A stretch of 64,000 nt of DNA from a bacterium. GTDB taxonomy: Bacteria; Patescibacteriota; Andersenbacteria; UBA10190. How positions within the stretch are numbered: the first letter of the stretch is position 1; every line of letters begins with the position of its first letter. The position numbers and the translations under genes were made by a program. Positions 688-53,235 of this stretch are shown here, in pieces. The stretch is from NCBI GenBank assembly GCA_030698495.1, contig JAUYKA010000005.1, forward strand, positions 8,404 through 72,403. Direction: 5' to 3'. The notes beneath the pieces are model-generated. The model ran no database searches, was not told the DNA's origin, and saw only the letters and a list, made by a program, of their open reading frames with translations.

Positions 688-690
688 TAT

Positions 691-1206
691 TTAGCTCTCT
701 TCCTTTATTTTTTTCACAATGTCGCTCGTGGCCAATCCCGGGCGGCGCTTAACCGTATAACCTTGCGCCCCAACTTCTTCCATTACCGGCCACTCTATCC
801 ATGTTTCCGGTTCACCGTATTCCGAACCGTTTACATGCACCTGCGGCTTTATCAAGCGTATTAAGGTTTGCGCCACCTCATCGTAAAGCCGATCAACAAT
901 CACCACGTAATCCACACTCTCTAGCGCCGCCAGCATTGCCGCTCGCTCATCTTCAGGAATATACGGCCGGCTCTCTCCCTTGCCTTCCCGCACCGACTTA
1001 TCCGAATTCAAACCGATAAACAAAACATCACCCTGCCGCTTGGCCTCCTCCAGAAAATCCAAATGCCCCGCGTGCAGCAAATCAAAAGAGCCGTTAACAG
1101 TCACAATTTTCTTCCCCGAAACCCGCAACTCCTCCGCTCGTCTCCCTCCCTCCTCCAAGGAAAGGATTTTGTCGTATCGCCAATTATGTTTAGTTTTATC
1201 ATCCAT
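691..1206 (-). CDS. hldC: D-glycero-beta-D-manno-heptose 1-phosphate adenylyltransferase (cytidylyltransferase fold, RfaE domain II-like stand-alone protein)
   Basis: GSFDLLHAGH nucleotidyltransferase (H/T)xGH motif; size 171 aa; sits between gmhB and hldD. Confidence 0.75.
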   Translation of the reverse strand: MDDKTKHNWRYDKILSLEEGGRRAEELRVSGKKIVTVNGSFDLLHAGHLDFLEEAKRQGDVLFIGLNSDKSVREGKGESRPYIPEDERAAMLAALESVDYVVIVDRLYDEVAQTLIRLIKPQVHVNGSEYGEPETWIEWPVMEEVGAQGYTVKRRPGLATSDIVKKIKEES

Positions 1207-8640: not shown

Positions 8641-9124
8641 AAGCCTTAGTATCGAGAATATAACACAAGACCGTATCAGCTGCCATAAATAAAATTAGGC
8701 CGCCGTTATCTGCCAAGTATCGCGATCCCCCCAGGAATCAATGCGACTCGACAAACAACGACGGCCAAAAGGGCCAAGATTCTCGCTTCGCCTTTTGACT
8801 TCACCGCGTGAAAACCGGACTGTCTCTTGGCATCCCTTTTACCTCCAACTTTAGGGTTTAGGGTGCACAGGCCAGGGGATCGCGGTACGGCTGTCGGGTG
8901 ACTTCCCCGACATTCAAACCGTTACCCGCGCGCCCGGGGGCCGCCGTCAGGAGGTCGTCGCGCAATAAGACCTTTTCTCGAGCTTCCCTCGCATACGCGC
9001 TCCTTCCTGCCAGGGCAACTAGATAGCCACCCGGCAAAGAGACAGAAAAAGAGAACAACTAACTACCCGTTTTATAGTACCTATTGACACACGAGTCAAT
9101 AGTCACATAAAAAATTAACGAGAA

Positions 9125-9230
9125 ACTCAAAATGAAAAACTCAAATTAACAAGATAAAACCAAAAACAGTTGCGGCAGTTTTGCCTTTTGCGTTGTTATT
9201 TTGAGTTTTTCGTTTTTAGTTTTTAGTTCT
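9125..9230 (-). terminator. Long AT-rich imperfect hairpin (AAAAC-repeat family) 3' of murJ
   Basis: Arms GAAAAACTCAAA...CAAAA and TTTTG...TTTGAGTTTTTC. Confidence 0.4.
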
Positions 9231-9232
9231 CT

Positions 9233-10849
9233 CTACTCCAACATCCCCCCAAACCTCGGCGTCTCCGTTCCCGCCTCTATCTTCGCCCGCCGCGGCAAAT
9301 ATTTCCGTATCGCCGCCAGCTCGTCGCACCTAAACAACAAACACATAGCCACATACGCCGCCACCCCGCCGCCGAAAGATACTAACAGCTGCAGCAATAC
9401 CCCCCAAAACCTGGTCATATCCACCATCGCCGCCACCGGATATTTTAGCGCCTGCAAAACCATTCCGGCCAGTACCGCCGCTACCGTTATCCTCGCCAAA
9501 CTAAACAGCACCTCGCGATCATTAAAACCGTTCAACTGCCAATGCAGCACGCCCAACAGCATCACTAAATTCAAAATCGCCGCCACCGAAAAAGCCAGCG
9601 CCAGCCCCTGCACGCCCATTCGCGGCGCCAACCATATTGCCAGCGCCACATTTACCACAATACTGATTAAAGAAACCGTCACCGGAATAATCGTGTTTTG
9701 CCTCACATAAAACGCTCGCGTCAACAACGGCACCGTCGCTTGCGCAAACAAACTGATCAGCAGCAACCCCAGTGTTTCGAAGGTTAGAATAGTATCTTCC
9801 CAGTCAAAAGCGCCGTCGCCAAACAGCACCCGAATCAACTGCGCGCGCAGCAAAAAGAAAAAGACCGCCACCGGCACCACTAGAAACAAAATATACCGAA
9901 AGGTTTTTGTCAGTGTATTCCTGAATTCTTTTTCCTGTCCTCGCGCTACTTGCTCCGCCAAGGTGGGAAAAGCCGCTTGGGCAAACGCCAAGCCGAATAC
10001 CCCTATCGGCAGACTCTGCACATTACTGGCCAAATGAAAAACCGAAATGGTTCCCGCCGCCAGCCCGGAACCGATTATCGTAACTAAAAACAAATTCACC
10101 TGTGTTCCGGCCAAACCGAATATACGCGGAATTATCATTCGCCGCAGTTTTTTTACATCAACGGAAGACCACTCCATTATCAGCCGCCAGCGCCAGCCGA
10201 CCGCGATCGCGCTCGGCAATTGCACCAACATATGTAGTGCTGCGCCCAGCACCACACCCCACCCCAGTCCGGATACTCCCATCATCGGCACCAGCCAAAC
10301 CACGCCGATAATTATACCGACGTTATAAAGAATCGGCGCCATCGCGTAAGCCACAAAACGCTTAAACGAATTCAGCACCCCGGAGAAAATAAAACTGATA
10401 CTCAATAATATCGGCTGCAGCGCCATCACTCGGGAAAGCATTATCGTCATTGCCAACTTGCCGCCGCTAAAACCCGGCGTTATCAAAGGCACAATCTTAT
10501 CGGCCAACATCACATATAAAATACTGAATATTATTACCACAATCAGGACTAAGTGAAGAACGGACAAGGAAAAATCAAACGCCTCTCTCTTTTTTTTATC
10601 TTTGCTATGAACCAGTTTCTCTGTGAACAAAGGAATAAACGCGGCCGACAAAGCTCCTACTACAACCAAATTAAAAATCAGGTCTGGTAAACGAAACGCC
10701 GCCACAAAAGCGTCAAACGTATCACCCGCGCCAAAGGTCGTGGTAAAAACCCTTTCTCTGATTAAACCCATGAAACGCGAACCTAAAGAGGCCGCTCCTA
10801 AAATCAGGGCCGCCGACACTACTCGACTGCTTACACCGTTTCTGGCCAT
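9233..10849 (-). CDS. murJ: Lipid II flippase MurJ/MviN family
   Basis: 538-aa polytopic membrane protein with the MurJ N-terminal signature (FMGLIRERVFTTTFGAGDTFDAF). Confidence 0.8.
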   Translation of the reverse strand: MARNGVSSRVVSAALILGAASLGSRFMGLIRERVFTTTFGAGDTFDAFVAAFRLPDLIFNLVVVGALSAAFIPLFTEKLVHSKDKKKREAFDFSLSVLHLVLIVVIIFSILYVMLADKIVPLITPGFSGGKLAMTIMLSRVMALQPILLSISFIFSGVLNSFKRFVAYAMAPILYNVGIIIGVVWLVPMMGVSGLGWGVVLGAALHMLVQLPSAIAVGWRWRLIMEWSSVDVKKLRRMIIPRIFGLAGTQVNLFLVTIIGSGLAAGTISVFHLASNVQSLPIGVFGLAFAQAAFPTLAEQVARGQEKEFRNTLTKTFRYILFLVVPVAVFFFLLRAQLIRVLFGDGAFDWEDTILTFETLGLLLISLFAQATVPLLTRAFYVRQNTIIPVTVSLISIVVNVALAIWLAPRMGVQGLALAFSVAAILNLVMLLGVLHWQLNGFNDREVLFSLARITVAAVLAGMVLQALKYPVAAMVDMTRFWGVLLQLLVSFGGGVAAYVAMCLLFRCDELAAIRKYLPRRAKIEAGTETPRFGGMLE

Positions 10850-17951: not shown

Positions 17952-17995
17952 CCAGATATATTAACGTAAGGTTGGCGACAACGCCAACCCCGCCA

Positions 17996-18110
17996 TAAAC
18001 TTAAAACTAAAAACTAAAAACTAAAAACTGCACCATAAAAAGAAAAAAGAACCGCGTAAAATCGTTCTTTTTCGTTTTTCACTTTACGTTTTGCGTTTTC
18101 TTATACCGCA
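17996..18110 (-). terminator. AAAAC-repeat hairpin family, 3' of the WbaP-like gene
   Basis: (AAAACT)x4 arm, central GC hairpin, GTTTTTCACTTTACGTTTTGCG arm. Confidence 0.4.
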
Positions 18111-19837: not shown

Positions 19838-20350
19838 GAAGACAGGTGAATGGCCGCTCTTTGTTCAAAGTTCGAGGCAACCCCTTAGGGGTTTACCCTG
19901 AGCTTGTCGAAGGGAGGAAAGTCCGGACACCTTATTGATCTTTTTCAATAAACGGGTGGCAGATAACGTCTGCCCGGAGCAATCCGAGGGACCGATACAA
20001 AATGGATAGATAGACACACGTGTATATCTATTTAATCGGCCAAGAGTGCAACAGAAACATACCGCTTTCACCCGCCGAAGCTTTACGCGAAGGCGGGCTA
20101 GTCCACTTCTTGTGGAGAGTAAGGTTGAAATCGTGAGGCCCGCCTTCGCGCGGGATACCCCTCGCTTCGGCGAGGCAAAGTAAGAGCTCACGCGGCCGCG
20201 CGGCAACGCGCGGACGGGGCAAGCCCCACCCGGTGCAACCTCAAGCAATTCCGCCTTAAAACGGAATAGGTAGAGGGCAAGAGGCGTACGGCGACGTGCG
20301 TCCCAGATAGATGGCCATTCCAGACAGAATCCGGCTTACAGCCTGTCTTC
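19838..20350 (+). ncRNA. rnpB: RNase P RNA (bacterial type A-like), about 513 nt with insertions
   Basis: P4 strands GGAGGAAAGTCCGGACACC (5') and ACAGAATCCGGCTTAC (3'). P1 pairs GAAGACAGG with CCTGTCTTC. Conserved blocks AGTGCAACAGAAAC and GGTAAGGTTGAAA are present. The region has no ORF and is GC-rich. Confidence 0.8.
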
Positions 20351-20409
20351 AAAAAAACCGCCCAGATTTTTGTCTGAGCTGTTTTTTTATGCCAACCAAA
20401 TAGATAATT

Positions 20410-21837: not shown

Positions 21838-21952
21838 ATATCAATCGGCGTTGAGATTAAACAACCTGAACTAATTTAATCATTATAACCGGTTTATAAC
21901 AAGGTGAAATACGAATAAAGACTATTCCAACACGGACATTGAATTTTCCCTG

Positions 21953-21982: not shown

Positions 21983-22354
21983 CTATATCACCTCGTACCG
22001 CACTCCCCGTCCGGTATTGCCTTCCTGTTTGAGCTTCCCCCGGAGTTCCAGCTCTTCCAAATATCTGGTGGCCGTAGCATCGGATACTCCCGTTGCCTTT
22101 TGCACCTCATCGTTACTCACGCCGCCGTGCTCGCGCGCGTACGCCATAACCTGCGCCAAAATATTTTCTTTGCGCTCCTGATCCTGCCGCACACTGTCCG
22201 CCAGCTCCGCCGGCACCGCTCCGCCACCACCGGAGCCCGAATCGTCCGCGCCACTACCAACCAAACCCAAACCGCGCCGCCTCAAAAACCAAGCACCCGC
22301 GCCCGCTACAATAAACCCAACTATAAATCCCCAAATAAATCCATTCATAAACAA
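21983..22354 (-). CDS. Membrane-anchored winged-helix DNA-binding protein (hypothetical regulator)
   Basis: N-terminal TM helix, Gly/Ser linker, C-terminal wHTH (VSNDEVQKATGVSDATATRYLEELE). Confidence 0.45.
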   Translation of the reverse strand: MFMNGFIWGFIVGFIVAGAGAWFLRRRGLGLVGSGADDSGSGGGGAVPAELADSVRQDQERKENILAQVMAYAREHGGVSNDEVQKATGVSDATATRYLEELELRGKLKQEGNTGRGVRYEVI

Positions 22355-26435: not shown

Positions 26436-26564
26436 AATTACATTATATCAAATTCACGCGTTTTTGTCAAAACCACGTGAATTGCACCCAATAACAGCCC
26501 TTCATTCACGCGTTTTTCTACAAATTCCCCCCCTGTCCACACTCGGTGTGGACAGGGAAATCAT

Positions 26565-27275
26565 CTATTTCCTCATCAGCCCATTTTCCCGAAAGCTGAA
26601 CAGTTGCGTTTTGCTGACTACCACATGATCTAGTAATCCTATTCCCATCAATTTTCCCGCTTCAGTTATTTGTTTTGTCACCGCCAAATCCGCTTCGCTC
26701 GGATTGGGATCGCCGGAAGGATGATTGTGGCAAACAGCGATGCTGGCGGCGTGCCGTCTTATTGCCGCGTCAAATGTTTCGCGCGGATGCACTAAATTAG
26801 CGTTAAGCGTCCCGACACCAATCAAGTCCACCCCTAACACCCGGTTACGATTATCAAACGAGGCTACGAAAAAATGTTCTTTCTGCCAGTCGCCAATAAA
26901 TGGTTTTACCAGCCGGGCGATGTCCTCCGGTGCCGCCACCGCTTTTGACTTATTTCTCTTTACCTCACTATCAGTTTCCTCCCGCACCACCCGCCGGGCA
27001 ATTTCCAGACATGCTTTTAATTGCAGTGCTTTCGCCTGCCCCAATCCCGGCACTTTCTGTAACTCCTCAACTGAAGCCGATACTACACCTGCCAACGATC
27101 CAAAACAACTCAACAAATTCTGCGCTATCTGCATTACCGATAACCCCGCCGTCCCGCGACCAAGCACGACGGCAATCAACTCCTGTGCCGAAACACTGCC
27201 AGCGCCGTATTTTACCAAACGCTCCCGCGGCCTCTCCTCCACAGGCATGTCCCGCACCGTGAAATTTTGCTTCAT
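26565..27275 (-). CDS. radC: RadC-like JAB/MPN domain protein
   Basis: HNHPSGDPNPSEAD JAMM motif; N-terminal HhH; start MKQNFTVRDMPVEERPRERL (ATG at 27273-27275). Confidence 0.8.
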   Translation of the reverse strand: MKQNFTVRDMPVEERPRERLVKYGAGSVSAQELIAVVLGRGTAGLSVMQIAQNLLSCFGSLAGVVSASVEELQKVPGLGQAKALQLKACLEIARRVVREETDSEVKRNKSKAVAAPEDIARLVKPFIGDWQKEHFFVASFDNRNRVLGVDLIGVGTLNANLVHPRETFDAAIRRHAASIAVCHNHPSGDPNPSEADLAVTKQITEAGKLMGIGLLDHVVVSKTQLFSFRENGLMRK

Positions 27276-27319
27276 GATTTTATCTACTGAATTTCCCCGC
27301 CCTAAGCCGCCATGATTAA

Positions 27320-27610
27320 TTAGTAAATATTTACCCCCCCACCAAGAACAAAGAGTACCCATACCACCAGAAGAAATCCAACCCAGGCTACACTACCATA
27401 CAAAGCAAATAGATTTATCAAAAAAAATCTACTGGGCTTTTCCAAGTTATTAAGTCGTATTAAATAAAAAAACTCTAATAAAGCAACAGCCACTGGAATA
27501 ATAAACGCAAATATTAAATCATTCTCATTAAAAAAAACAAGGATCGTTAGTGCAACACTAACCACAGCTAAAATTACCGCGACTGCTAAATGTATTTTTA
27601 TCATTCTCAT
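27320..27610 (-). CDS. Hypothetical small membrane protein
   Basis: 96 aa with three hydrophobic helices. Confidence 0.35.
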   Translation of the reverse strand: MRMIKIHLAVAVILAVVSVALTILVFFNENDLIFAFIIPVAVALLEFFYLIRLNNLEKPSRFFLINLFALYGSVAWVGFLLVVWVLFVLGGGVNIY

Positions 27611-27763
27611 AAAACTCTTTATATTTTACAACGTTTCTCTAATTGCGGCTATCATTTCCCGTAACGGTAACGCTTTCTCCTGATCAACCCTACCCCCGCG
27701 TATTGACCCGGCAAAATATATATACATATTTTTATTCTATCCCACCCATACAAAAAACAATAA

Positions 27764-27782
27764 ATCCAACACCCGATGTTAA
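27764..27782 (+). repeat. Direct repeat ATCCAACACCCGATGTTAA, copy 1
   Basis: Identical 19-mer at 29022-29040; extended similarity of about 30 bp. Confidence 0.7.
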
Positions 27783-27879
27783 TATTACACCGTAACACTA
27801 CTGTGCATTAACCACACTAGCCGTTTGGGTATCGTGTTTTTAGTGCTATGATTAAAGAAATTATCATTAATTTTATTCT

Positions 27880-28986
27880 ATGGAAAATATGGGGATGGAC
27901 AATCAAATAAATGAACAGCAGGAAGGTCAGTTTAATAACCAGCAAGCGGGTCAGCCTACTGAAGTTATTAACGAAATAAAGCCTAGAAAAAATTATACAT
28001 TGGCTATTGTTCTATTGGTTCTTGTTATATTTATAATGGTTTTTGCGGGAGGAGTTTTCGCTTATCTGTATTTTTCTTCCAAGACTAATAATATTGTGGC
28101 TGATGTGCCGATGGATACGAGCGCGCCCGTAGAATCTGCTACGCCAAGTCCCTCTGGTGAGTTGTCTGTAGTGTTTACACCTCCATATCCGGTTGTGTTT
28201 TCGGAAAGGGACAATACGCCAAACTTTGGCGGCGCGGGAAAATTTTCCCTAACTGGAGTTACGATAGGTGATTATGAGGTTACGGAAAGTAATAAGATGT
28301 CTTTCTGGGACGGATTTAAATACACATACGACGTGGGGCAGAAAATTAATTCCGTTGCATTAGAATTTAAAATTAACGTCACTGAGGGAGGCCAGCTTCC
28401 TCAAAGTATTAGAATGATTTCCGTGGATGAAGCGGGGGGTGAAGACAGGACACCACCGATAAACAGAGATTATTTGTATGATGGCCATAAGCCGATGAAT
28501 GATTTTGCGACGACTGACTCTACTGTCGAGAATGCACAGGTTGTTTTTGCAGTGCCGGAAGGCGCGACTTCATTTATGTTTACGAGCGGGGGAAGTTCAG
28601 AAATTAAGTTTAGTGTGGCCGTAAACAACGGACAGATATCAGTTAACCAGGCAAATCTTGGTGAAACCAGTACATTCACGAAATATATGACTGGAAATAT
28701 TGGGATTGATGTGGTTGAAGTGATGATTAATAGAGAAGGAGGAGTGCTGGCAGGAAATTTTGTGTCGGATAAAAAAGTCGGGATTATAAAGGGGACAGTG
28801 GATAGTGCCGGAAATTATTTTATGCAGTTAACGTTTCTAGAAGATAATCAGGAGTACGGAGTAATGACGGGCGCTCTTACGCTAGTGGATGATATAACTG
28901 GTAATTGGCGGGCGGCGGGTTCACTTGAGGATGTTCCGTTCACTTTGACCAAGGCGCAAATACGAATACCAGCCTTTGCTCAGTAG
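27880..28986 (+). CDS. Hypothetical membrane-anchored extracellular protein (the only substantial plus-strand CDS apart from rpmB)
   Basis: Q/N-rich N-terminus, single TM helix (LAIVLLVLVIFIMVFAGGVFAYLYF), and a 300-aa beta-rich ectodomain. Confidence 0.6.
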   Translation: MENMGMDNQINEQQEGQFNNQQAGQPTEVINEIKPRKNYTLAIVLLVLVIFIMVFAGGVFAYLYFSSKTNNIVADVPMDTSAPVESATPSPSGELSVVFTPPYPVVFSERDNTPNFGGAGKFSLTGVTIGDYEVTESNKMSFWDGFKYTYDVGQKINSVALEFKINVTEGGQLPQSIRMISVDEAGGEDRTPPINRDYLYDGHKPMNDFATTDSTVENAQVVFAVPEGATSFMFTSGGSSEIKFSVAVNNGQISVNQANLGETSTFTKYMTGNIGIDVVEVMINREGGVLAGNFVSDKKVGIIKGTVDSAGNYFMQLTFLEDNQEYGVMTGALTLVDDITGNWRAAGSLEDVPFTLTKAQIRIPAFAQ

Positions 28987-29021
28987 AAGAGATAAAAAAA
29001 TTTGTAAGGAAAAATAAGCCA

Positions 29022-29040
29022 ATCCAACACCCGATGTTAA
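29022..29040 (+). repeat. Direct repeat ATCCAACACCCGATGTTAA, copy 2
   Basis: See copy 1. Confidence 0.7.
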
Positions 29041-29176
29041 CATCGCAAATCGCGTGAATTTTAGTGAAAAACGGGTCTCATTCACGCGTTTTTCCTGATT
29101 TTTCCTACTTCACATACTCCACTGAACCACCCTTAATCTTCTTGTTTTTCAAGCAATCAACTGCCATAGGCACCAT

Positions 29177-29533
29177 CTATGACAAACCTTCAATACCACC
29201 GTCCGGCAAATCATCCGCCTCAAACCACTCTATTTCTTCATCCGTAGTAGTAGAAAAGTCGTTGGTATCCCCTTTATAAACAATGGCGTATAAATCTACC
29301 CGCCAACCTTTTGCTTTTAGCTTCCCGAAATATTTCCAGTCTTTCTTTTTGGTTTTCACGCCGGCTTCTTCTTTTACCTCCCTGACAATACAGTCACTGC
29401 TTTCCTCACCGCGCTCAATCCTGCCACCAATTCCATTCAGCTTGCCCGCTTGCCAGTCTGGCCTATTTTTATGCATCAATAAAACCTTTAAAAGATCATG
29501 GCTAAAAATAAAACCGAGAGTATAAGCTTTCAT
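29177..29533 (-). CDS. NUDIX hydrolase
   Basis: Nudix box GIGGRIERGEESSDCIVREVKEEAGV. Confidence 0.75.
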   Translation of the reverse strand: MKAYTLGFIFSHDLLKVLLMHKNRPDWQAGKLNGIGGRIERGEESSDCIVREVKEEAGVKTKKKDWKYFGKLKAKGWRVDLYAIVYKGDTNDFSTTTDEEIEWFEADDLPDGGIEGLS

Positions 29534-29653
29534 ACTCTAACTATATCAGAACCTGACACTCCTATCTGATCCGATCCAGTGCCTCGTTCACCATTTTGTC
29601 CGCTATCTTGTTTTTCTCCCTGGCCACACGATATGGTTTATTTCCGGAGTTAG

Positions 29654-29970: not shown

Positions 29971-30690
29971 TTAAAAATCAATCTTGGCCAAACACCCGTT
30001 TATCGTATTTACTCCCCTAACAACTTTAAAGTCTTTATTGTCATTCTGTAGACGCACTTCAGCATCTCCGCTGGTAAAAAACAGATTAATCGGATTACCG
30101 ACTACAACTTCCCGAACCAATTTCAAACCGTTGCCTCGTTTCTCCGGCGCCCGGCCGGAAATAAATTCAGTAAAAGCCACTTTTACCGCGGCAACATGGT
30201 TAGACAACTCCGGACGAACTTGACGCAATGTCCTTAGAATACCAAGTCCTCTGTCAGCTAATACAATTACCCCCTTCTTAATATCATACCCAAAAAATAT
30301 TCCGGGCACATCCGGCCATTTGCCTAAATTATGAGCAAATGAATTATCACCTATTTCACCGGCAATCAAGACAATAAGTGAATATAACTCTTCAAATCCA
30401 GGCTTGGCCATAAGTTCACGCTCCATTTTTACCAGCCTTGCTTGAAAGACAGCACTTGTCTGACAATAGAATCTCTCCGGAAATTCAGTTTTGTCACCAG
30501 CCCATTCGAAAGCGAATTTTAAAAGATCACTCGCGAAAATTTCGAGATCTTTCTCTCGATAATATCTGTGTGTTCCGCCTTCCTTTTTAATGGCAACCAA
30601 TTTTCCTCTTTCATCCCACCGGCGCAGGGTATCAATTGAAACACCAAGTATTTCAGCCGCTTGACTGATTGTTAACAGTTTTCTTTCCAT
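29971..30690 (-). CDS. MerR-type HTH fused to a GHKL (histidine-kinase-like / anti-sigma-factor-kinase-like) ATPase domain
   Basis: N-terminal LTISQAAEILGVSIDTLRRWDERGKL (MerR HTH). N-box GEIGDNSFAHN, G1 box DRGLGI and G2 box GNGLKLVRE. Confidence 0.6.
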   Translation of the reverse strand: MERKLLTISQAAEILGVSIDTLRRWDERGKLVAIKKEGGTHRYYREKDLEIFASDLLKFAFEWAGDKTEFPERFYCQTSAVFQARLVKMERELMAKPGFEELYSLIVLIAGEIGDNSFAHNLGKWPDVPGIFFGYDIKKGVIVLADRGLGILRTLRQVRPELSNHVAAVKVAFTEFISGRAPEKRGNGLKLVREVVVGNPINLFFTSGDAEVRLQNDNKDFKVVRGVNTINGCLAKIDF

Positions 30691-30832
30691 ATCTACACTA
30701 TAACATACCCTATAAATCTATGCAATTATTACATAAAACTATGCATTATTACTATAATCTATGCATTTTATTGATATTTATGGGCAAATTTCATACTTTC
30801 AGCTCATAAATTCACGCGTTTTTCCTGATTTT

Positions 30833-31237
30833 CTATTTCTCCCGATCCAGCGCTTCATTCACTAGCCTATCAGCTATCTTATTTTTATCCCGCGTCACGT
30901 GCGTAAAAGAAGTTGTCTCAAACTTATCCGCTAGTTCCTTCGCCTCAACAAATAACTGTTTTAATCCGTTATTTTTCACCCGATAATTTCCTTTCAACTG
31001 CTCCACCACCAACTGGCTGTCCAGAAAACATTTTATCTCGGACACCCCCGCCTCCAGCGCCATAGCTAATCCTTTTATCAACGCTTTATATTCCGCCTGA
31101 TTGTTTGTCGTCTCGCCGATATACTCGCCGTACTCCAGCGCCTGTTCCCCTTCCACCCTAAGCACTAAACCGATTCCCGCCGGCCCCGGGTTCCCTCTGG
31201 CTCCTCCATCGGTAAATAAAGTGGCTTTTTTTGACAT
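30833..31237 (-). CDS. rnhA: Ribonuclease HI
   Basis: TDGGARGNPG, NNQAEY and DSQLVV catalytic DEDD motifs. Confidence 0.8.
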   Translation of the reverse strand: MSKKATLFTDGGARGNPGPAGIGLVLRVEGEQALEYGEYIGETTNNQAEYKALIKGLAMALEAGVSEIKCFLDSQLVVEQLKGNYRVKNNGLKQLFVEAKELADKFETTSFTHVTRDKNKIADRLVNEALDREK

Positions 31238-38152: not shown

Positions 38153-38202
38153 TGGCTTATTGTATCATTTTTAACCTCTCTTGTCTCTCGCAAAAGCGGG
38201 CA

Positions 38203-38372
38203 GCGACACGCGCAGAATTTCCCTTGTCGGCCGTCTGAAGACCTGCCGGCCCGGTCTCCGCCATTGTTTTGCCTTGGCAAAACAATGGCGGAGCGGCAGG
38301 GCTTCAGCCGAGTAACACCCACCGCTGGGGTGGGTGTTATGTGCCAACAAGGGAAATTCTGCGCGTGTCGCT
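38203..38372. repeat. Family E element, copy 3 (between the PfkB kinase gene and fba)
   Basis: Same core; the outer stem is AGCGACACGCGCAGAATTTCCCTTGT paired with its complement. Confidence 0.7.
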
Positions 38373-43155: not shown

Positions 43156-43270
43156 GAAATTAACGTAAAATTAAAAACTAAAAACGTAAAACAACAACGT
43201 AAAAACCAAAAGACTGACGACGTTAGCGATATGGTTGTTTTTACTTTTGAGTTGTTGCTTTTCGTTTTTC
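43145..43270 (-). terminator. AAAAC-repeat hairpin family, 3' of map
   Basis: Arms of about 50 nt; shares CGTTTTTCACTTTAAGTTTT with the copy at 45045-45172. Confidence 0.45.
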
Positions 43271-43273
43271 ACT

Positions 43274-44116
43274 TTAAGTTTTTCGCTTACTCGTTAACAC
43301 TACTGGCCCCTCTTCCATCACCGCCACCGTGTGCTCCGCGTGCGCCGATAAGTTCCCGGATTTTATTTTTACCGACCAGCCATCCTCACCAGTCACCACA
43401 ACCGGATTTCCTTTTGTCACCATCGGCTCAATCGCAATCACCAACCCCGGTTCTATTAAAGCGCCGGCGCCTGCTCGGCCGAAGTTCGGCACCTGTGGTT
43501 CCTCATGCACCGCGTAACCAACACCATGCCCGACCAGCTGGCGCACTACTTCAAACCCCGCTGACTCAACATAACGCTGAATGGCACAACCGATATCACC
43601 AATCCTATTCCCTGGCAAAGCCGCCGCTATTCCCCGCTGTAGTGCTTCTTCTGTAACCGCCACTAATTCTTTTGTCTTACCGGATCCGCCTCCGACTATA
43701 ACCGTCTGCGCACTATCCAGATAATATTTACCCCGATAAATCAACCCCAAATCCAAACCAACCACATCCCCGCCAACAAATGGCGCGTCAGTTGGTATGC
43801 CATGTACCACCGCATCATTTATTGAAACACAAAGCGCCGCCGGAAAAGGTTGCTGGCCACTTGAAGCGTAATTCAAGAAAGCCGGTTCGCAACCTCGCGC
43901 CCGAATTAACCGCGTGGCCAATTCATCCAGTTCTGCTCCGGTTGTACCAACCTTAACAACACCGGCCAGTTCTGCCAACACTTCTCCCAGCATCCTTCCT
44001 CCCTCTCTTAATTTCTCTATATCATCCTTGGTTTTTAAGCGAATCACATTATTAGAATTAAGAATTATCCCCCGTCGCCCCGTCTTGACGGGGACTATGG
44101 GGGACAGGTGAATCAA
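43274..44116 (-). CDS. map: Methionine aminopeptidase type I
   Basis: Metal-ligand motifs (GHGVG, HEEP). The start is uncertain between MIHLSP and a downstream codon. Confidence 0.85.
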   Translation of the reverse strand: MIHLSPIVPVKTGRRGIILNSNNVIRLKTKDDIEKLREGGRMLGEVLAELAGVVKVGTTGAELDELATRLIRARGCEPAFLNYASSGQQPFPAALCVSINDAVVHGIPTDAPFVGGDVVGLDLGLIYRGKYYLDSAQTVIVGGGSGKTKELVAVTEEALQRGIAAALPGNRIGDIGCAIQRYVESAGFEVVRQLVGHGVGYAVHEEPQVPNFGRAGAGALIEPGLVIAIEPMVTKGNPVVVTGEDGWSVKIKSGNLSAHAEHTVAVMEEGPVVLTSKRKT

Positions 44117-44381: not shown

Positions 44382-45041
44382 TTAATTCTGCACTTTATCA
44401 ATAACCTTCATCACACTCTTAAAAACCTCCGCCACACTCGGCATCCCGTCCAACTCATGCAGTTCTCCCCGCCGGCGGTACTCCTCCACCACCGGGTATG
44501 TTAACGTCATGAACTGATCCCAGCGCGTCGCAAACTTACCCGGCTCATCATCGGGACGTACCCCTATCATTCCCCTTCTCTCCTCACAGCGGCGTCGGTC
44601 ATCGTCATTAACCACCGGAAAGTCGCCCGACACCCCCAAACAAAACTTGCGCTTAGAATTGCGCTCAATCATCTCTGCCCGATCAACAGCCAGATAGATA
44701 ACCAGCGGTTTCCCATAGTTCTCCTCGGCAAAAAAAAGATCAACAATTTTGGCTTCCGCCACCGTTCTGGGCGTGCCGTCAAAAACCAACCCCCTGCCGG
44801 ATTCAATATGTTCTTTTACCGCCGTCATTACAATTTCAGCAGCCATCTCCGGCGGCGCCAGATACCCGTTATCAATCGTCTCCTTAACGCGGTGCCCTAA
44901 ATCCGTATTCTGACGCGCCACTTCTCGAAACGCATCGCCCGTACTGAACTGATGATAACCAATTTTTTCCGCCAGCATTTTTGCCTGCGTCCCTTTTCCT
45001 GCACCTGGTGCACCCATAATATAAATAATTTTTGGCAACAT
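44382..45041 (-). CDS. adk: Adenylate kinase
   Basis: P-loop GAPGAGKGTQA; LID region with Cys/acidic residues. Confidence 0.9.
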   Translation of the reverse strand: MLPKIIYIMGAPGAGKGTQAKMLAEKIGYHQFSTGDAFREVARQNTDLGHRVKETIDNGYLAPPEMAAEIVMTAVKEHIESGRGLVFDGTPRTVAEAKIVDLFFAEENYGKPLVIYLAVDRAEMIERNSKRKFCLGVSGDFPVVNDDDRRRCEERRGMIGVRPDDEPGKFATRWDQFMTLTYPVVEEYRRRGELHELDGMPSVAEVFKSVMKVIDKVQN

Positions 45042-45044
45042 GAA

Positions 45045-45172
45045 AAATAAAAGTTAAAAACTAAAAGCGAAAAACAACAACGCAAAAATAAAAACAACTA
45101 CGCCGACGTCGGTCTTTTTGCTTTTGCGTTGTTGTTTTGCGTTTTTCACTTTAAGTTTTACGTTTACGAAAA
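45045..45172 (-). terminator. AAAAC-repeat hairpin family, 3' of secY
   Basis: GCGAAAAACAACAACGCAAAA pairs with TTTTGCGTTGTTGTTTTGCG; shared motif CGTTTTTCACTTTAAGTTTT. Confidence 0.45.
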
Positions 45173-46465
45173 CCCCTCATACTCCCGCATTGTCAGCTGC
45201 GACTCAATCTGTTTCAACGTCTCTACCACCACGGAAACCACGATCAACAAAGCTGTACCGCCAATCGTCAGGGTGGTTAAACCGGTAAATGCCTGTAATA
45301 ACAAAGGCAAAACGGCGATAAATCCCAGAAAAATCGCGCCCGTCAAAGTAATCCGGTTAATCACGTATTTCAAAAACATGGTTGTTTGTCGCCCTGGACG
45401 TATCCCGGGAATAAACCCTCCCTGTTTTTGAATGTTTTCCGCTACATTCTTCGGATCAAAAGTCACCGCCGTGTAGAAATATGTAAAAACCACCACCAAC
45501 ACAAAATACATCGCTCCGTAAAATAACTGGTTTTGGAACGCGTTCACAATACGCTGGGCCACACTACTCACTACAGCATTACTTACTCCCACAAAAAAGT
45601 TAGCGATCACTCCGGGAAACAACATGATCGACAACGCGAAAATTATCGGAATAACTCCGGCTTGATTAACCCGCAAAGGCAGATGAGTTGAAACACCGCC
45701 AAACATCCGATTTCCCCGCACCCGCTTAGCGTAACTCACCGGAATTGATCTCTGCCCCTCTGTAATAATCACCACTCCGGCCACAACCACTACAGAAATC
45801 ACCAGAAAAGCGCCATAGGTAAGCAGTTGGTCAGAAGTTAAAGTTGATAAAATTTGTGCCGTTACGCTCGGCAGACGGGCGATAATGCCAACAAATATAA
45901 TTAAAGAAATACCATTACCTATATTCTGTTCGGTAATCAATTCTCCCAGCCACATCAAAAATATCGTCCCGGCCGTAACGCTGATGATAGTCACCACTAA
46001 TTGCCAAAAAGAAAAAGTAATCTCCGGCCCTGTCCCGCCGGATAATCCTCCGCGCTGGATCAGATTCAAAAAAGCAAACGCCTGCAAAGCGGCCAACGGC
46101 ACCGTCAACAGTCTCGTCCATTGATTTATCTTTCGGCGGCCGGCTTCTCCTTCCTCTTTTTGCATTTCCTCCAACCGCGGCACGATCATTGTCATCAACT
46201 GCATTACAATTGACGCGGTAATATACGGACCGACCCCCAACATAACTATCGAAAGATTTGATAACCCTCCGCCTGAAAACACGTCCAATAAACCGAATAA
46301 TTGATTGCCGGCGAATAAATTATGTAAACTCGTCGGATCAATACCCGGTACCGGTATAACCGCCGCGATTCTAAAAACAACCAACAACCCCAATACTATC
46401 AAAATTTTCTTGCGCAACTCCGGCACCCGAAACATCGCCAGATATCTTTTCCAATTCAAAGCCAT
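45164..46465 (-). CDS. secY: Preprotein translocase SecY
   Basis: 10-TM protein with conserved SecY blocks; sits after rplO. Confidence 0.95.
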   Translation of the reverse strand: MALNWKRYLAMFRVPELRKKILIVLGLLVVFRIAAVIPVPGIDPTSLHNLFAGNQLFGLLDVFSGGGLSNLSIVMLGVGPYITASIVMQLMTMIVPRLEEMQKEEGEAGRRKINQWTRLLTVPLAALQAFAFLNLIQRGGLSGGTGPEITFSFWQLVVTIISVTAGTIFLMWLGELITEQNIGNGISLIIFVGIIARLPSVTAQILSTLTSDQLLTYGAFLVISVVVVAGVVIITEGQRSIPVSYAKRVRGNRMFGGVSTHLPLRVNQAGVIPIIFALSIMLFPGVIANFFVGVSNAVVSSVAQRIVNAFQNQLFYGAMYFVLVVVFTYFYTAVTFDPKNVAENIQKQGGFIPGIRPGRQTTMFLKYVINRITLTGAIFLGFIAVLPLLLQAFTGLTTLTIGGTALLIVVSVVVETLKQIESQLTMREYEGFS

Positions 46466-50360: not shown

Positions 50361-50732
50361 TTACCAAACTTCGGGCGCCAACGAAACTATCTTCTGATAA
50401 CCCCCATTGCGCACTTCCCGGGCGATAGGCCCAAACACACGCGTTCCTATTGGCTCCTTGCTTTCCTTTTGCAGTATTACCGCCGCGTTATCGTCAAACC
50501 GAATTGCCGATCCGTCTTTCCTCTTTTCCTCTTTGCTGGTACGAACAATTACAGCACGCACTACATCGCTCTTTTTTACTGCTCCCCTCGGTTCGGCTAT
50601 TTTTACTGTTACTACCACAATATCACCCAAATATGCATACCGGCGGCCGGTATTGCCCAACACCCGAATCACCTGCAGCAACTTGGCTCCGGTATTGTCT
50701 GCGACACTCAACATTGTCCGTTCATGTACCAT
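50361..50732 (-). CDS. rplN: Ribosomal protein L14
   Basis: Conserved sequence. Confidence 0.9.
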
Positions 50733-50875
50733 ATATACTTATCTCGCTTATCAACTTATCTTACTTTGCCCGCCGGCCGTGTCCCTCCGTAGCCTTGTGC
50801 GGAGGGGGACCGTGTCCCTCCGTAGCCTTGTGCGGAGGGGGAAGCTTTAGCGAAGGCTGGGCTTATCTCGCTTAA
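50733..50875 (-). repeat. Intra-operon repeat element, copy 1 (GATAAG-repeat leader plus tandem-duplicated hairpin TCCCTCCG-N10-CGGAGGGA plus a segment encoding DKPSLR-stop)
   Basis: Near-identical copy at 53117-53235. Its distal end supplies the last 6 codons and the stop codon of rpsQ. Confidence 0.7.
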
Positions 50876-53116: not shown

Positions 53117-53235
53117 ATGCTTATTATCTTATTTACTTATCTCGCTTATTAACTTATTTTACTTTGCCCGCCGGCCGTGTCCCTCCGTAGCCTTGTGCGA
53201 AGGGGGAAGCTTTAGCGAAGGCTGGGCTTATCTGC
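53117..53235 (-). repeat. Intra-operon repeat element, copy 2 (ATAAG x5 leader plus hairpin plus DKPSLR-stop segment)
   Basis: See copy 1. Supplies the C-terminal DKPSLR and the stop codon of rpsS. Confidence 0.7.

Follow-up and report, generated by a model that had tools for sequence, protein, structure and literature searches.

A 20-bp direct repeat around the only plus-strand protein gene in 64 kb of a Candidatus Andersenbacteria genome as a possible insertion junction

A perfect 20-bp direct repeat, AATCCAACACCCGATGTTAA, brackets the sole plus-strand protein gene, among more than 60 protein genes, in a 64-kb stretch of DNA from an uncultivated Candidatus Andersenbacteria bacterium of the candidate phyla radiation (CPR, or Patescibacteria), known as a metagenome-assembled genome (MAG). 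This whole stretch, part of contig JAUYKA010000005.1, is referred to as the window, and all coordinates are window positions. The bracketed gene, referred to as the focal gene, encodes a protein predicted to be anchored in the membrane and exposed outside it. We propose, and give the proposal an even chance of being right, that the repeat is a junction duplication produced by the insertion of a single-gene module of about 1.26 kb. The features of the locus are the following:

27763-27782, plus strand: direct repeat copy 1, AATCCAACACCCGATGTTAA, in the spacer from which a 96-aa membrane protein gene and the focal gene diverge
27844-27852, plus strand: candidate extended -10 promoter TGcTATGAT, read from the sequence, inside the repeat-bounded segment and 28 nt upstream of the ATG
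27880-28986, plus strand: focal gene, the putative cargo, 368 aa, with alternative starts at 27889 and 27895
29021-29040, plus strand: direct repeat copy 2, 34 nt (28987-29020) past the stop codon and 6 nt ahead of the terminator hairpin
29032-29045, no strand assigned: perfect 14-bp palindrome CGATGTTAACATCG, which begins within the right end of copy 2 and runs on into the host flank
29047-29093, plus strand: terminator hairpin CGCGTGAAT / ATTCACGCG followed by TTTTT, serving the plus-strand gene from outside the repeats and convergently common with the NUDIX gene

The locus was first singled out in a sequence-only reading as a perfect 19-bp direct repeat. The window has two exact copies of this 19-mer, ATCCAACACCCGATGTTAA, one at 27764-27782 and the other at 29022-29040, both on the plus strand, and the exact identity proves to be one base longer, 20 bp, or 23 bp if one mismatch is allowed. 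Within-genome searches covered the 64-kb window of this genome and revealed no further 19-mer site, even with up to three mismatches allowed. Shuffled sequences give an expectation of 0.03 matches for the 19-mer, and none of 100 shuffles yielded two; similarly, the longest word common to both spacers never exceeded 13 nt in 2000 shuffles, compared to the 20 observed. The edges of the repeat are sharp, with identity falling from 20/20 to background immediately on either side. The similarity of about 30 bp described previously does not hold, as the extension amounts to A-rich similarity (34 nt at 82%) that is not significant, and besides the repeat no other sequence is common to both intergenic regions.

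The NCBI MAG GCA_034372665.1 (JAXMKP010000045) also has this locus, as do the Logan assemblies of SRR13727534 and SRR26726065. Contigs from Logan match the window at 100% identity across 21.6 kb and 7.1 kb, and the NCBI MAG contig departs from it by 5 substitutions and, away from the focal locus, a single 166-bp indel. The repeat is thus no artefact of assembly, since the identical sequence is recovered in this MAG and in both of the independent Logan assemblies. The three assemblies represent one population and provide no comparison.

Both repeat copies are intergenic, with copy 1 ending 97 nt before the focal open reading frame (ORF), and whichever strand is read, one copy sits 5′ and the other 3′ of the same gene. 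This is the geometry of junctions, not that of a promoter or terminator family; the true regulatory repeat families of this genome have three to seven copies at equivalent positions such as stop codons. The statement that the repeats flank a single plus-strand coding sequence is borne out for the whole window. Other long plus-strand ORFs are shadows of minus-strand genes (RuvX, Peptidase_M24, L4 and others), and the only other plus-strand gene is the RNase P RNA at 19838-20354.

The base composition changes sign close to the repeats. Strand asymmetry is extreme over the whole window, with all protein genes but one on the minus strand and a GC skew of about -0.3 throughout. GC skew at third codon positions (GC3 skew) is +0.2 to +0.7 on the coding strand for every minus-strand gene, the minus strand being G-rich throughout, and intergenic DNA has a plus-strand skew of -0.19 to -0.41. 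The focal gene, opposite to its surroundings, has a GC3 skew of +0.41 on its own (plus) strand. In the best two-breakpoint fit, the cumulative G-C count switches at about 27820, which is 38 nt inward from the end of copy 1, and at about 29018, which is 3 nt short of copy 2. In non-coding DNA the counts are G20/C19 inside the repeats versus G32/C80 in those parts of the two spacers that lie outside them.

If one copy is deleted together with the DNA between the repeats, the predicted empty site reads ...ACAATA-AATCCAACACCCGATGTTAA-CATCGC..., or in extended form ...ACAATA-AATCCAACACCCGATGTTAA-CATCGCAAATCGCG.... In this reconstructed site the right end of the repeat falls, at the junction, within the perfect 14-bp palindrome, which has a 5+4+5 structure (CGATG TTAA CATCG). 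The 20-mer itself holds a weak dyad, AACA-N5-TGTT.

The locus belongs to a low-GC island of about 9 kb (about 21.9-30.8 kb), where GC content is 35-47% compared to about 50% around it and where all genes but the focal gene are on the minus strand. The island encodes a winged helix-turn-helix (wHTH) protein, a PsbP-like protein and a type II restriction-modification (R-M) system consisting of a TdeIII-type restriction enzyme and its methylase. It continues with Fic (matching the PADLOC candidate families PDC-S04 and SoFic), RadC, the 96-aa membrane protein and the focal gene, and ends with a short NUDIX protein (PDC-S07-like), a DUF4325/STAS-like protein of 97 aa and a MerR/excisionase-type helix-turn-helix (HTH) protein with GHKL-like motifs. 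The HTH regulators encoded in the island are at 21983-22354 and 29971-30690. A relative whose RecJ is 49% identical (L012) keeps the flanking gene order RuvX, GT2, GalT, TIM, FBA, PfkB, GAPDH, PGK, enolase, RecJ, RNase H and passes from RNase H straight to Bac_transf and GT4 genes, the island being absent. This relative is too distant, and its comparison therefore provides no empty site at the level of bases. Three further features of the island bear on how it was assembled:

29562-29630, minus strand: remnant of the RNase H 3′ end between the NUDIX and 97-aa genes; 66 nt with 71% identity to 30833-30898
29080-29102, plus strand: copy of the 23-mer ATTCACGCGTTTTTCCTGATTTT, identical to 30810-30832, with related copies at 26452 and 26504
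30810-30832, plus strand: the other exact copy of the 23-mer, directly adjacent to the stop codon of RNase H

At the amino acid level the remnant matches RNase H at 15 of 20 positions (75%, E=2e-5), the position of the stop codon included, a score reached by none of 500 shuffles. This implies either that a module with the 97-aa and HTH/GHKL-like genes was inserted beside RNase H and the junction was duplicated in the process, or that recombination brought in an RNaseH-NUDIX segment from a donor. Beyond the 23-mer, similarity between the NUDIX 3′ flank and the RNase H 3′ end is not significant. The presence of this remnant and of other boundary repeats indicates that the island was built piecemeal; judged from these repeats, it is demonstrably a patchwork grown by insertion and by duplication at junctions. 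Among the other repeats, an exact 17-mer recurs at 26502 and 29078, and a motif family, ATTCACGCGTTTTT(CCTGATTTT), is found in the island only, at 26452-26526, 29047-29102 and 30808-30832. All five ATTCACGCG sites of the window fall at 26.4-30.9 kb, where 0.9 would be expected. Some copies of the family pair with an inverted copy to form hairpins, and the family may represent island-specific terminators or module-boundary repeats.

The sharp 20-bp identity, the placement of one copy 5′ and one 3′ of the gene, the reversed composition of that gene and an island grown by insertions with junction duplications together lead us to read the repeat as an insertion junction. The module would consist of its own promoter candidate and the gene of a membrane-anchored, beta-rich surface protein in head-on orientation. 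Its point of entry would have been intergenic, with the NUDIX terminator on one side and the promoter region of the 96-aa/RadC unit on the other, in a piecemeal-built variable or defence island. The most economical route would be a single crossover between incoming circular or linear DNA and the chromosome at one shared 20-bp sequence; such a crossover leaves one copy at each junction. It may have resembled recombination at an att core or a Campbell-type event at short homology, catalysed in trans or by host functions. The present state would be a fixed scar, whose sole predictable activity is rare precise loss through recombination or slippage between the repeats. Of the cassette-like insertion suggested earlier, the insertion draws support from the intergenic copies, the G-C switch, the inner promoter candidate and the patchwork island, and the mobility does not. 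A promoter carried by the module itself is plausible, TGcTATGAT being a candidate on sequence grounds; an alternative sigma-70-like candidate, TTGACC-16/18 at 27703-27732, lies outside the repeat-bounded unit.

Several observations weigh against an insertion by recombination. No tyrosine or serine recombinase is present among the annotated ORFs, which for all statements on recombinases are those at about 0.7-46.5 kb of the window, and the cognate enzyme postulated elsewhere in the genome was likewise not found among them. The protein encoded at 29971-30690 does not qualify as an IS607-type serine recombinase and was rejected as such, since only its HTH matches and a resolvase domain is lacking. 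ARAGORN detects no tRNA or tmRNA in the window, so there is no tRNA target. The focal gene and both repeat copies are carried by 3 of 3 assemblies (at least two samples) with 99.96-100% identity across the locus, no empty site or circular junction is seen in these assemblies, and no alternative contig was found to contain the NUDIX neighbour. A plus-strand transcription unit would be expected to produce the composition switch just as well, and the left switch point is 38 nt away from the end of copy 1. Finally, other exact intergenic repeats of 20-25 nt in this genome are regulatory, for example CGTTTTTCACTTTAAGTTTT at 43263 and 45140, and exact 20-mers alone therefore do not mean recombination.

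Searches outside the window returned matches at chance level only. Among 185,579 species genomes the 19-mer has one match, inside a coding ORF of Haloflavibacter, where about four are expected by chance. In JGI metagenomes the 20-mer has one match, on an unrelated AT-rich contig of 1.5 kb (L010), with approximately one expected by a rough estimate. In viral contigs the 20-mer has no match and a 17-mer has three, which corresponds to the chance level. The 19-mer was not found beside different cargo in these collections. On L010 the match to copy 1 runs for 23 nt exactly within an apparently non-coding stretch of about 150 nt (690-830, minus strand). Immediately upstream of it is a promoter-like site, TTGACA-17-TAGAAT, and the match provides the 5′ arm of a hairpin with a perfect 9-bp stem (AACACCCGA...TCGGGTGTT). 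This hairpin is not shared by the repeat copies of the window, and the L010 site has no Rfam match; the match is probably due to chance, and it could be a small RNA. Exact look-ups of the flanking NUDIX protein, the 96-aa protein and RecJ retrieve the same strain only, always with the focal gene, and in the nearest other genome RecJ is 52% identical. RadC was tried and rejected as a synteny anchor because the contexts of its homologues are not conserved. The sequence-only reading would lose its mobile element if no empty site, no alternative cargo and no additional copy existed; none was found, which is a weak test with no close relative available and with 64 kb searched for copies.

The arrangement shares features with several known systems. 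As in the attL and attR sites of prophages and of tyrosine or serine integrase islands, an identical short core of 15-25 bp (here 20/20) lies in direct orientation at both junctions, and the reconstructed target has dyad symmetry. Unlike those systems, the locus has no integrase inside or nearby, a single 1.1-kb gene as cargo and a target that is neither a tRNA or tmRNA nor the 3′ end of a gene. Neither excision products nor empty sites were seen in the three assemblies, which represent one population. The repeat-bounded segment holds one ORF, which is devoid of a recombinase domain. The possibility that the repeat is a tRNA fragment (T-arm plus 3′ half of the acceptor) was discarded, no GTTGG/TTCGA partner being present upstream of any copy and ARAGORN reporting nothing. 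A direct duplication also flanks the insertions of transposons, insertion sequences (IS) and miniature inverted-repeat transposable elements (MITEs). However, 20 bp exceeds the usual target-site duplication and no transposase was found. Terminal inverted repeats are missing just inside the duplication (27783-27850 versus 28950-29020). A transposon or MITE was consequently rejected: inverted termini, transposase and any other copy in the window are all lacking, and database matches are at chance level only.

Integron gene cassettes carry at their 3′ end an attC site, an imperfect palindrome of 57-141 nt running from RYYYAAC to GTTRRRY, and are co-oriented and mostly promoterless, with an IntI integrase and attI nearby. 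The locus resembles them as a single-gene unit in an array-like modular region, and ATCCAAC in the repeat fits the inverse core RYYYAAC. It differs in that no GTTRRRY partner follows within 140 nt downstream, no IntI was found, the focal gene is head-on with its own promoter candidate and the boundary repeats measure 20 bp in place of the 7-bp cores. The terminator hairpin predominates in the fold of 28987-29110, which is not of the attC type. With no partner, attC-type fold or IntI, an integron cassette was rejected. Modules that depend on Xer, namely integrative mobile elements exploiting Xer (IMEX) and pdif modules, are likewise small, are bounded by short sites and use host enzymes in trans. 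A dif site is 28 bp long, with two inverted arms of about 11 bp around a spacer of 6-8 bp, and the sites of pdif modules are usually oppositely oriented. The repeat lacks an 11-6-11 dif-like architecture (the comparison is one of architecture only, as a CPR dif consensus is not established), and the locus is not at a skew switch, cumulative GC skew being monotonic across the window. The microcin H47 island of E. coli offers a precedent for a locus with direct repeats at both ends and no recombinase inside. It is a 13-kb island with long imperfect direct repeats that share four homology blocks (PMC5426353, PMC3191183), and experiments showed that it excises between these repeats without needing RecA or any of the 16 site-specific recombinases of K-12 (PMC5426353). 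By analogy, loss of the module would proceed through host, RecA-independent recombination between the repeats. In contrast to the H47 island, the locus has one 20-bp block around a 1.26-kb unit and shows no sign of excision in the assemblies.

The two copies could instead be binding sites of one DNA- or RNA-binding regulator, such as a looping operator pair or an element of the 5′ and 3′ untranslated regions, whose identity selection preserves and which have no recombination history. We consider this unlikely but retain it, because exact 20-25-mers can be regulatory in this genome. The copies are intergenic and as sharp-edged as a binding site would be, the 20-mer has its weak AACA-N5-TGTT dyad and copy 2 runs on into the palindrome, other intergenic repeats here are clearly regulatory, and the genes of the HTH regulators at 21983-22354 and 29971-30690 are nearby; moreover, if the TTGACC at 27703 is used, both copies lie within the mRNA. 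However, there are only two copies at non-equivalent positions, with none elsewhere in the 64 kb even at three mismatches. The regions around the two copies have no common RNA fold (z = -0.8 and -2.1, with different structures), and no known RNA family of Rfam matches at or near the repeats. The 20/20 identity also exceeds what an operator typically needs, and flanking repeats were not found around homologous genes elsewhere. The repeat as the eroded remnant of a larger local intergenic duplication, unrelated to the arrival of the gene, is improbable in our judgement: other partly decayed duplications do exist in the island (the RNase H 3′ end, at 71%) and a weak A-rich similarity extends for 11 nt to the left of the repeat, but decay should be gradual and identity drops at once on both sides.

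A site-specific recombination product or mobile gene cassette, as put forward in the sequence-only reading, is unproven, given the lack of a recombinase, a tRNA target and attC, dif or transposon anatomy. An active cassette, with the 20-mer as an att-like core and a recombinase elsewhere in the genome that excises and re-integrates it as a circle (compare integrons and Xer), would have the same geometry as an insertion scar, and the perfect palindrome at the reconstructed junction, the excisionase-type HTH protein and the exact 20-nt (23-nt) match in the intergenic hairpin of L010 would fit it. The HTH protein in question (239 aa, 29971-30690) lies about 1 kb away and has an excisionase/MerR-type HTH only, scoring 28.1 bits against the TIGR01764 cut-off of 28.8, with GHKL-like motifs visible by eye in its C-terminal part. 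Against such activity stand the lack of a recombinase, of a second cargo and of a second site, the chance level of the public matches, the failed attC and dif tests and the absence of polymorphism at the focal locus across three assemblies between which a 166-bp indel elsewhere is detectable. We therefore regard an active cassette as quite doubtful. A still bolder version, in which the 20-mer is the core site of a minimal CPR cassette system with a recombinase in trans, single surface-protein genes with promoters of their own are exchanged at a palindromic intergenic site of a defence island and L010 is a second site, is a long shot. The idea of an invertible surface-protein switch (inverton) draws on the focal gene being alone in reverse orientation and encoding a surface protein. 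Recombination between direct repeats deletes rather than inverts, which excludes inversion; no inverted pair brackets the gene or its promoter, and a single orientation is seen in all three assemblies, so we assign an inverton next to no weight. A chance match or assembly artefact is just as hard to credit, as neither the 100 nor the 2000 shuffles reach what is observed and independent assemblies are identical.

The focal ORF is a real gene, judging from 42 homologues (seven with E<1e-30) in a set of 1.8 billion representatives and from a confident AlphaFold model (pLDDT 80). It is a near-orphan whose homologues are at most 40% identical, stand in unrelated contexts and are co-oriented with their upstream neighbours. 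The protein matches no Pfam, NCBIfam or PADLOC family, and no phage or plasmid relative of the gene or the region was matched. In the model a low-complexity N-terminal tail is followed by a transmembrane helix at residues 39-67, a beta-sandwich at about 95-257 and an 8-stranded beta domain at 265-358. According to Foldseek, the surface lipoproteins HphA, TbpB and fHbp have barrel domains that the protein weakly resembles (best E=0.012). The protein is membrane-anchored, beta-rich and probably extracytoplasmic according to the model, in agreement with the membrane-anchored extracellular product called from the sequence. Its neighbours on either side are:

27320-27610, minus strand: left neighbour, a 96-aa protein with multiple transmembrane segments and no family, followed by RadC (26565-27362)
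29177-29533, minus strand: right neighbour, a short NUDIX protein of 118 aa matching the PADLOC candidate defence family PDC-S07

The NUDIX ORF has an in-frame TAG followed by 24 more sense codons (MVPMAVDCLKNKKIKGGSVEYVK; 29105-29533, minus strand), and this frame stops 2 nt from the 23-mer. By its sequence, the gene may have been truncated by a nonsense mutation. Upstream of the MerR/excisionase-HTH and GHKL-like gene (29971-30690), three tandem boxes CTATGCA(A/T)T(A/T)TTAC at 30709-30770 likely form an operator array. A second Andersenbacteria population in the same two samples (L007/L008; Logan SRR13727534 and SRR26726065) has a RadC that is 91% identical to that of the island, in the different context PQQ_2 - RadC - tyrosine phosphatase, which suggests that the island RadC was exchanged between co-resident Andersenbacteria relatives.

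Other repeats were noted in the window. Long AT-rich inverted repeats (AAAACTAAAAACT... / ...GTTTTTCACTTTAAGTTTT) lie at 9114-9238, 17995-18107, 43159-43297 and 45028-45174, each precisely at a stop codon (those of MurJ, Bac_transf, Map and SecY). Their copies are exactly identical over at most 20 nt, and they resemble a common family of terminators. The members of a second family, AAACGGCTCAAGCGnnCGCTTGAGCCGTTT, are at 21946, 25499 and 63168. Repeats of 83 nt and 59 nt at 50727-50868 and 53125-53233, which are 93-98% identical and include blocks of 41 and 33 nt that match exactly, contain GC-rich hairpins and lie between ribosomal-protein genes; one of them is internally duplicated at 50777 and 50810. 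The 166-bp segment (38192-38357), between PfkB and FBA, has 26-bp terminal inverted repeats (AGCGACACGCGCAGAATTTCCCTTGT) and nested palindromes; its fold, a branched hairpin, is extremely stable (-137 kcal/mol, z=-16). The window and Logan SRR13727534 both have this segment, and the NCBI MAG contig from the same strain lacks it. The difference reflects either a MITE-like strain polymorphism or a collapse of the hairpin during assembly.

If the repeat is indeed an insertion junction, this one locus in one population would provide a base-resolved example of how a streamlined and near-totally co-oriented CPR genome acquires a single accessory gene. The gene would have landed between two genes of a defence or variable island, with a 20-bp duplication at its ends and no recombinase encoded by the element itself. 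Its surface protein gene would then be predicted to be precisely losable.

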